A stretch of DNA of 64,000 nucleotides from a virus (lineage: Duplodnaviria; Caudoviricetes): IMG/VR virus record IMGVR_UViG_2974673286_000001, positions 64,001 to 128,000 of that record; one strand, written 5' to 3'. Shown here piece after piece: positions 62,079-62,797 of this stretch (its first letter is position 1; every line of letters begins with the position of its first letter). Under the pieces are notes generated by a model. It searched no databases and was not told the DNA's origin. It was given only the letters and a program-made list of their open reading frames with translations. Made by a program: the position numbers and the translations under genes.

Positions 62079-62651
62079 GTGGTCAAATACACGATCACTT
62101 CACGGTTTCACGATAAAGAGGAATTTAGGGATCACGTACACCAAGGAGTCGATCTGGCGATGCCTGAAGGAACTGATCTGAAAGCCATAGTCGATGGAGT
62201 AATCAGAACAGCAGACTACGGTAGTTCTTCCACAGGAAAAACGGTGTTCATAGACGCAGCCGATGGAAAGACGTACATCTATGGACACCTGAAGGATTTC
62301 TCTGTAAGCGATGGGCAGCCGATACATGTGGGTGATATTTTAGGTCATTCAGGTAACTCTGGTCATGTTGTAGGTAGCAATGGCGGGTATCATCTCCACT
62401 TCGGTATAAAGGAGCACGGAGAATTTATAGACCCGACACCGTACACTTCACTCATTCAGCATATGGATCAGTTAAAAGGGGCAGCTCACGCAACCGTTAA
62501 CTCTGGCTTGGATGCTCTGGAAATGCTAAACCAAGCGCTGAGCCAGTTTACTCAGACGTTATCGGAGATGACTCTGAACTGCATCAGTCTATTACTCGAA
62601 AATCGTACAGTGTCTCTAATATCCGATATAGTTCTCTCATGGTTATGTTGA
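62079..62651 (+). CDS. M23 family metallopeptidase
   Basis: ITSRF, HQGVD, YGHL, G.SGNSG, HLHFG. Confidence 0.9.
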   Translation: MVKYTITSRFHDKEEFRDHVHQGVDLAMPEGTDLKAIVDGVIRTADYGSSSTGKTVFIDAADGKTYIYGHLKDFSVSDGQPIHVGDILGHSGNSGHVVGSNGGYHLHFGIKEHGEFIDPTPYTSLIQHMDQLKGAAHATVNSGLDALEMLNQALSQFTQTLSEMTLNCISLLLENRTVSLISDIVLSWLC

Positions 62652-62745
62652 CATTCTGCTTATCCTGAATTGTGTGAAGAACCAGATGATCGACATTCTG
62701 CATTTGCTTCTCATATCTGGTCAGCGGTTTAGAGTCAAAGAGCAC
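62584..62745 (-). CDS. 53-aa antisense protein (not in ORF track)
   Basis: Minus-strand SD AAGGAGGT 7 nt before GTG; MLFDSKPLTRYEKQMQNVDHLVLHTIQDKQNVNITMRELYRILETLYDFRVID. Confidence 0.65.
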   Translation of the reverse strand: MLFDSKPLTRYEKQMQNVDHLVLHTIQDKQNVNITMRELYRILETLYDFRVID

Positions 62746-62768
62746 GGTCGCTACCTCCTTTCAAGAGT

Positions 62769-62797
62769 TAGTATGTCCGGTCGAATTTCAATTATAC
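62769..62797 (-). promoter_or_regulatory. sigmaG-type forespore promoter
   Basis: Minus strand reads GTATA-17bp-CATACTA, matching the B. subtilis sigmaG consensus, 8 nt upstream of the SD of the 53-aa ORF. Confidence 0.65.

Follow-up and report, generated by a model that had tools for sequence, protein, structure and literature searches.

Towards the end of a 64-kb stretch of phage DNA (64,000 nucleotides, referred to as the window), a short ORF on the minus strand faces the plus-strand genes around it and is preceded by what resembles a promoter for the sigma factors of the host forespore. This raises the question of whether the ORF is a gene at all and, if so, which sigma factor would read its promoter and to what end. 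Virulent Bacillus phages can be carried into spores and re-emerge at germination, and the handles known for this carriage are, in phi29-like phages, the boxes for host Spo0A and, lately, phage-encoded sigma factors. The window itself derives from a Nitunavirus-like Bacillus phage (Herelleviridae, Bastillevirinae) with a whole genome of 153 kb, and contains four Spo0A boxes (TGTCGAA) versus 5.4 expected. A plasmid origin was considered and rejected, with no match in PLSDB.

A small minus-strand gene of Bastillevirinae phages

The small gene occupies 62584..62745 on the minus strand, with a GTG start codon at 62743-62745 and 53 codons plus a stop ending at 62584, and its ribosome-binding site (AAGGAGGT; 62753..62760, minus strand) lies 7 nt upstream of the GTG. 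It converges on an M23 peptidase gene (62079..62651, plus strand; Peptidase_M23, E 1.7e-23), with which it shares a tail-to-tail overlap of 68 nt (62584..62651, both strands). On its other side lies a divergent neighbour (62812..63012, plus strand) encoding a 66-aa membrane protein (DUF7394, phrog_3796). The preliminary description of this DNA had pointed to a 53-codon GTG ORF with this ribosome-binding site and to an overlap of 68 nt with the M23 3′ end; all elements of the ORF were found in place, and the overlap was borne out by the M23 gene ending at 62651.

With 53 aa, the ORF falls below the 60-aa default minimum of the ORF-finding tool. Being short, overlapped by a longer gene and missing from several genome annotations (e.g., those of Grass and Goe3), it might be taken for a chance ORF behind a chance motif. 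This reading, to which we assign a practically negligible probability, is refuted by the conservation of the gene down to 43% identity with an undisrupted reading frame, and by a pN/pS of 0.12 in its own frame versus 0.22-3.1 in the other five frames (39 pairs). The small protein matches phrog_5065 from end to end (residues 1-53 on profile positions 1-53 of 53; E 4.2e-24, 85.3 bits), and tblastn with two different query proteins retrieved the gene from 153 phage records of at least nine genera (E<=0.01). Among the relatives, substitutions are conservative and core residues invariant, a start codon of GTG, ATG or TTG keeps its position, and a GGAGG-type ribosome-binding site is present at the equivalent place in all 16 upstream regions compared. 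The gene is already a CDS in the annotations of BSP15, SBSphiJ5, BCU4, TsarBomba, BM-P1, Bcp1, Evoli, B4 and Deep Blue. Judging from this pattern of conservation and substitution, the 53-aa ORF is a genuine protein-coding core gene of the Bastillevirinae phages. Several of its carriers (SBSphiJ, Grass, Goe3 and phiNIT1) are B. subtilis phages.

The gene is always oriented opposite to its neighbours, including in Bacillus cereus-group phages whose locus lacks M23. The small gene, which points against the surrounding plus-strand genes, would form a one-gene transcription unit of its own. It had been described as the window's sole convincing gene on the minus strand, and this view stood among the ORFs scanned. 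Greedy ORF tiling yielded five other minus-strand candidates within the window, and the PHROGs scan covered four of these together with a further minus-strand ORF (30940-31254). None of the five ORFs scanned (29301-29603, 30710-30928, 58213-58353, 60328-60588 and 30940-31254) matched a PHROGs family, and the fifth candidate (63070-63312) sits within a plus-strand gene (63026-63577) that matches phrog_3528. Around 29300-30100, reverse-complemented ribosome-binding sites belong to small plus-strand genes. Outside the window, a large block of minus-strand genes is found at genome positions 6-33 kb.

The promoter of the small gene

Upstream of the ribosome-binding site, a –35 box (GTATA; 62793..62797, minus strand) is separated by a 14-nt spacer (attgaaattcgacc; 62779..62792, minus strand) from a –10 box (GGACATACTA; 62769..62778, minus strand). 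The latter includes CATACTA (62769-62775, minus strand), with 17 nt between it and GTATA. The resulting GTATA-N17-CATACTA, which the preliminary description had assigned to the sigmaG type, was indeed found and agrees without a mismatch with the consensus of SigG, the sigma factor of the late forespore (GHATR-N17/18-CATXHTA). It is the sole match in the 64-kb window, where 0.06 would be expected and where 5 of 100 shuffles gave at least one match. Moreover, GTATA fits the GYATA element, and GGACATACTA the GGnnAnAHTR element, of the published SigF consensus (GYATA-N14-GGnnAnAHTR; Wang et al. 2006, as quoted in a passage of bioRxiv 10.1101/2023.12.01.569620), so that with its 14-nt spacer the window promoter shows 0 mismatches to this consensus as well and shares all three features exactly with the early-forespore SigF promoters of B. 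subtilis. Those promoters are on the host chromosome, whereas the window promoter, with its putative SigF dependence, is on the genome of a virulent phage. An A follows the –10 box in the window; a conserved downstream A is a SigG feature in C. difficile, according to the section of PMC3789822 on this point.

For comparison with the relatives, 28 distinct upstream regions were taken from 40 loci. Mismatches to the SigF consensus numbered zero in 14, one in 10 and two in 4 of these regions, whereas shuffled upstream regions reached zero mismatches in 0.02% and one mismatch in 0.6% of cases. Against the SigG pattern, 8 regions had no mismatch, 12 had one, 7 had two and 1 had three. GTATA was exact in 24/28, and the box-to-box spacing was 14 nt in 20 regions, 15 nt in 7 and 13 nt in 1. 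The distance between GTATA and the ribosome-binding site of the divergent gene varied from 0 to 3 nt (1 nt in the window, where that site lies at 62799-62803). Both boxes and their spacing were thus kept across genera, in contrast to the drifting sequence of the spacer and the varying distances to the genes on either side. An A/T-rich spacer further characterizes SigF-dependent promoters; spacers are A/T-rich in most relatives, with 12-14 A/T of 14 in B. cereus-group phages versus 9/14 in the window. The proposal that ORF and promoter be looked for in related phages was followed via tblastn and these upstream regions, and both proved conserved.

The match is not uniform among lineages. The promoters of Agatevirus and Shbh1 have two mismatches and a degenerate –35 box, and Bastille- and Bequatrovirus phages carry a G at –10 position 7, where the consensus has an A. 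Since B. cereus-group phages have –10 boxes without CAT (i.e., AATACTA or AAAACTA) and yet retain the SigF-type GG, use of SigG may be lineage-specific. Elsewhere in the same loci, 182,334 bases scanned yielded 0 exact and 10 one-mismatch SigF matches. The exact N14 motif occurs twice in the 153-kb genome, the second copy being inside a CDS, and five relatives had 1-3 motif matches per genome, about equal to a reversed-pattern control and hence without genome-wide enrichment. By its conserved boxes and their distribution, the promoter is of the forespore type and not a general phage promoter.

An ordinary SigA promoter might nevertheless drive the small gene in growing cells, with GGACATACTA conserved for some other reason. 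The window contains TCGTCA-N16-TATAAT (62791..62818, minus strand), which matches TTGACA-N16-18-TATAAT at 10 of 12 positions and includes a perfect TATAAT overlapping GTATA; TATAAT-like hexamers overlap GTATA in several genera, and a perfect TATAAT, which might also act alone, is found in several lineages. However, conservation does not extend to any –35 box, and the best SigA matches in relatives depart from the consensus by 2-4 mismatches and shift in location, much as they do in shuffles. The hexamer moreover decays to TATAAA or TATAAG in Bastille- and Bequatrovirus, losing its final T, and a SigA promoter would not explain why another box is conserved at a constant distance of 14 nt. We therefore regard it as improbable that SigA is what reads this promoter.

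Overlap with the M23 gene and the encoded protein

The preliminary description had also suggested an antisense RNA that silences the M23 hydrolase, and more broadly, cis-antisense RNA or convergent transcription could shut off either M23 or the downstream plus-strand genes for membrane proteins. In line with this, the overlap has an equal length of 68 nt in four lineages (Nituna-, Grisebachstrasse-, Agate- and Goe8-like phages). Moreover, no convincing terminator was seen after the small ORF, the window showing one weak hairpin (62538-62555), and likewise none was found after the small gene in Bcp1, BCU4 and Evoli. Since no convincing terminator follows, the transcript may extend further into M23. 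An Rfam search of 62000-63200 for structured RNA gave no match at E<=1.

However, the overlap was not kept wherever the small gene was kept. It measures 62 nt in Mater, 95 nt in Shbh1 and merely 4 nt in L031, and is absent from BM-P1, which retains both gene and promoter, and from phages without M23. The locus lacks an M23 gene in BCU4, TsarBomba, Bcp1, Deep Blue, Evoli and B4, and gene and promoter persist without it in at least four genera (i.e., Tsarbomba-, Caeruleo-, Bastille- and Bequatrovirus). Because the gene is kept in phages without M23 at the locus, silencing of M23 cannot be its conserved role. The encoded protein, on the other hand, is strongly constrained: within the overlap bases, pN/pS was 1.12 for the M23 tail versus 0.40 for the small ORF, so that by this measure purifying selection acts on the small ORF but not on the M23 tail that it overlaps. 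The M23 overlap is a lineage-specific by-product, the idea of a conserved antisense function did not hold up, and we consider an antisense role of any of these kinds very unlikely.

As for the protein itself, AF2 modelled helices at residues 10-29 and 36-48 (mean pLDDT 77), giving a two-helix hairpin as the predicted fold. Homology searches with the small protein found no Pfam family at cut-off (best KH_BICC1, E 0.031), no NCBIfam family and no usable match in the ESM Atlas. Its model had no match in the PDB via Foldseek at E<=0.001, and the best Z-score of a wide VIA-align search (4.6; Mozart1, the TraM N-terminal domain and others) corresponds to background for helical hairpins. A word-indexed protein search returned only four close relatives, and the full HMMER profile search 33 representatives of 48-81 aa, except for one 4092-aa protein that matched in 11 short stretches and was taken as spurious. 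In bacterial genome contigs, none of 111 matches to a single peptide pattern encoded a relative, which is weak evidence of absence. With known small sporulation regulators or anti-sigma factors (Sda, the Spo0E-like proteins, CsfB/Gin and Fin), the two-helix hairpin is the sole trait in common.

The window protein is a member of phrog_5065, a PHROGs family without an assigned function and for which no statement on promoter or orientation was found. Reports of the small gene or of a forespore-type promoter in Bastillevirinae were likewise not found in the literature at the level of abstracts; the words 'promoter' and 'sporulation' are absent from the Thurquoise paper. The gene family is thus already catalogued, and it is its conserved forespore-type promoter for which no report was found.

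Candidate sigma factors and a possible role in the forespore

A consensus match alone is no proof of which sigma factor uses a promoter. The phage encodes a sigma factor of its own (53667..54764, plus strand; 365 aa), a distant SigB/F/G-like protein that has an additional HTH region at its C-terminus, and it had been suggested that this protein could read the promoter as well. The small gene would then be a middle or late lytic gene unrelated to the forespore. The best NCBIfam matches of this sigma factor are indeed SigB/F/G and SigG, such sigma genes occur in all lineages examined, and the sigma factor g169 of phage Eldridge, which is 62% identical to SigF, switches on the SigF/G regulon (as stated in the part of PMC9429907 on that phage). 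The window sigma factor, however, scores far under the cut-offs for SigF and SigG (100.5 bits on the SigBFG model with cut-off 234, and 98.5 on SigG with cut-off 372). Moreover, the homologous sigma factor g157 of Goe3, a phage of the same subfamily that infects B. subtilis, switched on no sporulation genes when induced in that host (fewer than 50 genes changed, with no sporulation enrichment, in the experiment as summarized in PMC9429907). Each genome has one copy of the motif in a promoter setting, without enrichment, and it would be unusual for a sigma factor to serve just one target. A k-mer enrichment in intergenic gaps, run for promoters of the phage sigma factor, recovered nothing but early promoters of the SigA type at the ends of the genome. 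Finally, the sigma factors of the window phage and of Grass, encoded at equivalent genome positions, are 32% identical and differ in their region-4 helices, including the –35-reading helix, whereas both phages have one and the same 110-nt sequence upstream of the small gene.

Because the sigma factors diverged while this 110-nt region remained identical, a host sigma factor is favoured, and the suggestion of a phage-borne reader becomes the less likely one; we consider it unlikely, though by no means negligible. We infer instead that host SigF or SigG reads the promoter. The preliminary proposal of a forespore-specific phage protein was upheld as to the gene and the promoter type, whereas expression in the forespore is something that we infer from the promoter. 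Contigs from RNA libraries of relatives (four runs, X1-X4; 61600-63600) cover the small ORF in 4/4, although they are unstranded, do not show level, may include DNA carry-over and therefore speak neither way on its transcription.

The reading that we favour, and hold with moderate confidence, is that host SigF or SigG transcribes a two-helix phage protein exclusively in the forespore. During ordinary lytic growth, the small-gene promoter would be silent or weak. When an infected cell sporulates and the phage genome ends up in the forespore, SigF-RNA polymerase of the host would transcribe the small gene, and SigG would probably transcribe it later as well in phages of the B. subtilis group, where the –10 box additionally contains CATACTA. 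The two-helix protein would then act in the forespore, most plausibly via binding another protein, and would either keep the entrapped genome of the phage quiescent, as a 'virospore', or disturb the development of the spore. Since the searches gave neither a relative nor a fold that would inform on function, its role there is guesswork and conjecture. As a rather doubtful extension, put forward tentatively, the one-gene unit may be a dedicated 'inside forespore' switch that is wired to host SigF/SigG and whose 53-aa product halts the lytic programme or reprogrammes the forespore, so that the virulent phage would survive as a dormant genome in the spore (a virospore) and resume at germination.

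Such a scheme resembles known cases in which a virulent Bacillus phage ties its gene expression to the sporulation programme of its host. In phi29, lytic arrest and spore entrapment are controlled by Spo0A (as described in the portion of PMC2731898 on this control), and SPO1, which also belongs to the Herelleviridae, becomes entrapped in spores as 'virospores' (according to the account of entrapment in PMC12991052). While these systems use binding sites for a host repressor (Spo0A), here a compartment-specific sigma factor of the host would switch a phage gene on. Moreover, entrapment has been observed for phi29 and SPO1, whereas for the Bastillevirinae it would be a prediction from sequence. 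The phage-encoded sporulation-like sigma factors (covered in sections of PMC9429907 and, for Bcp1, of PMC2716549) belong to phages of the same subfamily and share the theme of the forespore sigma cascade; there, however, the phage provides the sigma factor, whereas here it would provide the promoter for a host sigma factor.

If it is the phage sigma factor or SigA that uses the promoter, the small gene amounts to a further small hypothetical protein. On the forespore reading, the phage may sense its entrapment in a developing spore via the small-gene promoter. Should the small gene in addition be the dormancy switch proposed above, this would be the first case of a spore-entrapment determinant encoded by a phage and switched on by a forespore sigma factor. 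A gene that is conserved across a subfamily of large lytic myophages and carries a promoter shaped for forespore sigma factors would offer a concrete and readily testable entry point into how these phages behave in the developing spore.

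A conserved reverse gene at the end of the M23 gene

Read from the sequence, the minus-strand locus comprises a –35 box GTATA (62797–62793), a 14-nt spacer, a –10 box GGACATACTA that includes CATACTA (62778–62769), a ribosome-binding site AAGGAGGT located 8 nt after the –10 box (62760–62753) and, 7 nt further on, a GTG start codon (62745–62743) opening a 53-codon frame whose stop codon ends at 62584. This small ORF overlaps the plus-strand M23 peptidase ORF (62079–62651; Pfam E 1.7e-23) by 68 nt. Since all of these elements, the ORF and the overlap were re-found (via the sequence, an ORF listing and a pattern search), and since GTATA-N16–18-CATACTA is unique in the 64-kb window (one match vs. 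0.06 expected), the preliminary description of the locus was accurate. It had also regarded the small ORF as the only convincing minus-strand gene in the window, and the gene indeed stands alone as a convincing one: greedy ORF tiling gave five other minus-strand candidates, of which four, together with one further minus-strand ORF, matched no PHROGs family (0/5), while the fifth (63070–63312) sits within the phrog_3528 gene. Across the virus record (153,268 bp, with the window at bases 64001–128000), genes run in the plus direction from ca. 34 kb to the end, and a minus-strand block lies at 6–33 kb. The DNA of the locus is 90–94% identical to that of Bacillus phages SBSphiJ1–7, Grass, BSP15 and phiNIT1 (Herelleviridae, Bastillevirinae, Nitunavirus), and no plasmid match was found for it.

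Five agreeing lines of evidence establish the small ORF as a real, conserved gene. Its match to phrog_5065 covers the full length (E 4.2e-24), and tblastn with its protein retrieved 153 phage records at E ≤ 0.01 (151 of them named Bacillus phages, with identity down to 43%), a number equalled when the phage Mater protein served as query. The matches extend over the Nituna-, Grisebachstrasse-, Agate-, Mater-, Tsarbomba-, Caeruleo-, Bastille-, Bequatro- and Shalavirus genera, with existing annotations such as BSP15_178, BCU4_0094, TSARBOMBA_194, Bcp1_205, Evoli gp237, BCB4_0131 and Blue_083. For 39 sequence pairs sharing 80% or more of their nucleotides, pN/pS was 0.12 in its own frame vs. 0.22–3.1 in the other five. 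In protein alignments, nine positions were invariant in a set of 14 sequences and seven in a set of 22, mostly core hydrophobic residues, with conservative exchanges elsewhere, and the start codon (GTG, ATG or TTG) kept its position across relatives. From 1.84 billion representative proteins, a profile search retrieved only 33 relatives, all of 48–81 aa save one 4092-aa protein that was regarded as spurious because of its short repeated matches. Scanning a bacterial genome collection with a single peptide pattern revealed no relatives.

Synteny around the gene is constant, i.e., a ParM-like gene, a gene of ca. 100 aa, M23 (in some lineages), the reversed small gene, DUF7394 and then more genes for membrane proteins. 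Four M23-bearing lineages share the 68-nt overlap, Mater has a shorter one (62 nt), Shbh1 a longer one (95 nt), and at a further M23-bearing locus (L031) the two genes share 4 nt. The overlap had prompted the suggestion of an antisense RNA that silences M23. As a conserved purpose this was rejected, since six B. cereus-group phages (BCU4, TsarBomba, Bcp1, Deep Blue, Evoli and B4) keep the small reverse gene at a locus without M23, and since within the overlapping bases (11 loci of the 68-nt geometry, 55 pairs) pN/pS was 0.40 for the small ORF vs. 1.12 for the 21-codon M23 tail. The latter value indicates no constraint of its own, so that the M23 tail rides on the small gene and not the reverse.

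On the upstream side (60561–61950), the ParM-like actin gene (NCBIfam ParM E 4.9e-22, below the cut-off) is overlapped at its end by a 102-aa gene (phrog_3536), possibly encoding an adaptor of the ParM-like protein; in all genera examined, this pair immediately precedes M23 and the small gene. In phage BM-P1 (732–1898 of locus L008), an HNH homing-endonuclease gene lies directly upstream of a diverged small-gene copy (ca. 73% amino acid identity), a remnant of the last 33 codons of the older copy remains beneath the M23 3′ end, and the GTATA box is the exact point from which Nitunavirus homology restarts. Promoter and small gene were apparently imported by the endonuclease as a single cassette. 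In the Mater locus (535–1218 of L009), an HNH gene is likewise present, at a distance of two genes. The records MN364664.1 ("Xanthomonas phage Xoo-sp15") and MN940411.1 ("Phage f2b1", stated host Staphylococcus aureus, sigma annotated as "sporulation sigma factor") carry this Bacillus-phage small gene and a similar sigma gene; their host labels look doubtful.

A forespore-type promoter and its candidate readers

A preprint on rho expression (bioRxiv 10.1101/2023.12.01.569620) quotes, after Wang et al. (2006), a SigF consensus with a –35 GYATA and a –10 GGnnAnAHTR, and a typical spacer of 14 bp that is A/T-rich. The promoter in the window fits both boxes and the 14-nt distance without mismatch. 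Homologous loci (n = 40; 15 GenBank records, 24 IMG/VR records that partly represent the same phages, and the window) provided 28 distinct 110-nt upstream regions, and the best fit to GYATA-N13–15-GGNNANAHTR had zero mismatches in 14, one in 10 and two in four (Agatevirus and Shbh1). Shuffled upstream regions reached zero mismatches in 0.02% and exactly one in 0.6% of trials, while the remainder of the 3-kb loci (both strands, 182,334 bases) contained no exact and 10 one-mismatch fits. The boxes are separated by 14 nt in 20 regions, 15 nt in seven and 13 nt in one, with a spacer sequence that varies from genus to genus; the –10 box ends 21–41 nt before the start codon, and 0–3 nt separate the –35 box from the divergent gene's ribosome-binding site. 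By sequence, this box geometry is that of a promoter, and a promoter of predicted forespore type is conserved and specific to the small gene. Another exact SigF-consensus match in the genome, GCATA-N14-GGGTATAATA at 45628–45656 (+), is probably due to chance, since it sits in a coding sequence starting at 45579.

The SigG pattern, GHATR-N17/18-CATNHTA, is likewise matched without error by the window promoter and by phages of the Grisebachstrasse-, Mater- and Goe8-like types. Its fit is looser (one to three mismatches) in phages of the B. cereus group, which retain the SigF-type GG. [quoted passage not shown] Of the earlier proposal of a forespore-specific protein, the gene and its conserved forespore-type promoter are supported, while expression in the forespore is what these elements would predict.

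A promoter scan also found a SigA-type pair, TCGTCA-N16-TATAAT, whose TATAAT overlaps GTATA and which might itself drive the small gene. However, this pair is not conserved: relatives have two to four mismatches at shifting positions, much like shuffled sequence, and in two genera the hexamer has degenerated to TATAAA or TATAAG. The preliminary description had further considered the phage's own sigma factor (53667–54764, 365 aa), whose best models are SigB/F/G and SigG with scores far below the cut-offs. This reader is less likely. The motif does not recur as a phage promoter, with two exact N14 matches genome-wide (the other within coding sequence) and one to three matches per genome in five relatives, similar to a reversed-pattern control. 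The enriched intergenic k-mers of this genome belong to SigA-type early promoters. The Grass sigma at the equivalent position is 32% identical to that of the window and has a differing region 4 helix, yet the 110-nt upstream region is identical in both phages. Moreover, Schwartz et al. (PMC9429907) report that fewer than 50 genes, without sporulation enrichment, responded when Goe3 g157 was induced in B. subtilis during growth. Given the unconserved SigA boxes and these four points against the phage sigma, the host forespore sigmas would be the most economical readers.

The sigma-factor module is a hot spot of mosaicism (53667–54764 in the window vs. 1492–2918 of Grass locus L041): the sigmas at this position are 32% identical, although window and Grass DNA are 92–94% identical 8 kb downstream; Grass_167, a second short sigma ORF in Grass, has no counterpart in the window. 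Outside the window, towards the two ends of the genome (1.3–5.5 kb and 142–146 kb), ca. 12 near-identical strong SigA-type promoters (TTGACT, 17 nt, TATACT) are probably early host-takeover promoters.

The 53-aa protein and the sporulating host

AlphaFold2, given a 22-sequence alignment, predicted a two-helix hairpin (helices 10–29 and 36–48; mean pLDDT 77) with a disordered N-terminus. Its conserved surface includes R-Y-E-(K/R)-Q where helix 1 begins, and (F/Y/W)-R-(V/I)-(I/V)-(D/E) in the C-terminal part. Pfam, NCBIfam and Foldseek on PDB and the ESM Atlas gave no informative relatives, and VIA-align was uninformative (best Z 4.6). With eight acidic and seven basic residues, the protein is nearly neutral and without obvious DNA-binding character; our guess is a small protein-binding factor. 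Contigs span the small ORF in four RNA-library runs with relatives; these are strandless and level-less, and may reflect DNA carry-over.

Plus-strand transcription would normally cross the small-gene locus. Should the host sporulate with a phage genome trapped in its forespore, the solitary reverse promoter would be activated by SigF-RNA polymerase and, at a later stage, by SigG, so that the 53-aa protein would be made in the forespore only. Of its likely tasks, the preferred one would be to halt the lytic programme or keep it on hold, allowing the phage genome to survive in the spore. This can be placed in the context of the related phage SPO1 (Herelleviridae), which is trapped as "virospores" with the proposed help of its ParM-like gene (according to PMC12991052); the window likewise has a ParM-like gene, with the small gene two genes downstream. 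As a second preference, the protein may disturb forespore development, in the context of Bcp1 from the same subfamily, which uses its sigma genes to block sporulation (PMC2716549). As a side effect, the reverse transcript may collide with transcription of the plus strand.

The phrog_5065 family is already catalogued, often as hypothetical, and the literature, covered through abstracts and selected passages, named neither the small gene nor any forespore-type promoter for these phages. Promoters for sporulation sigmas and phages coupled to sporulation are known in kind; a conserved gene of a virulent phage under a predicted forespore sigma promoter appears to be new.
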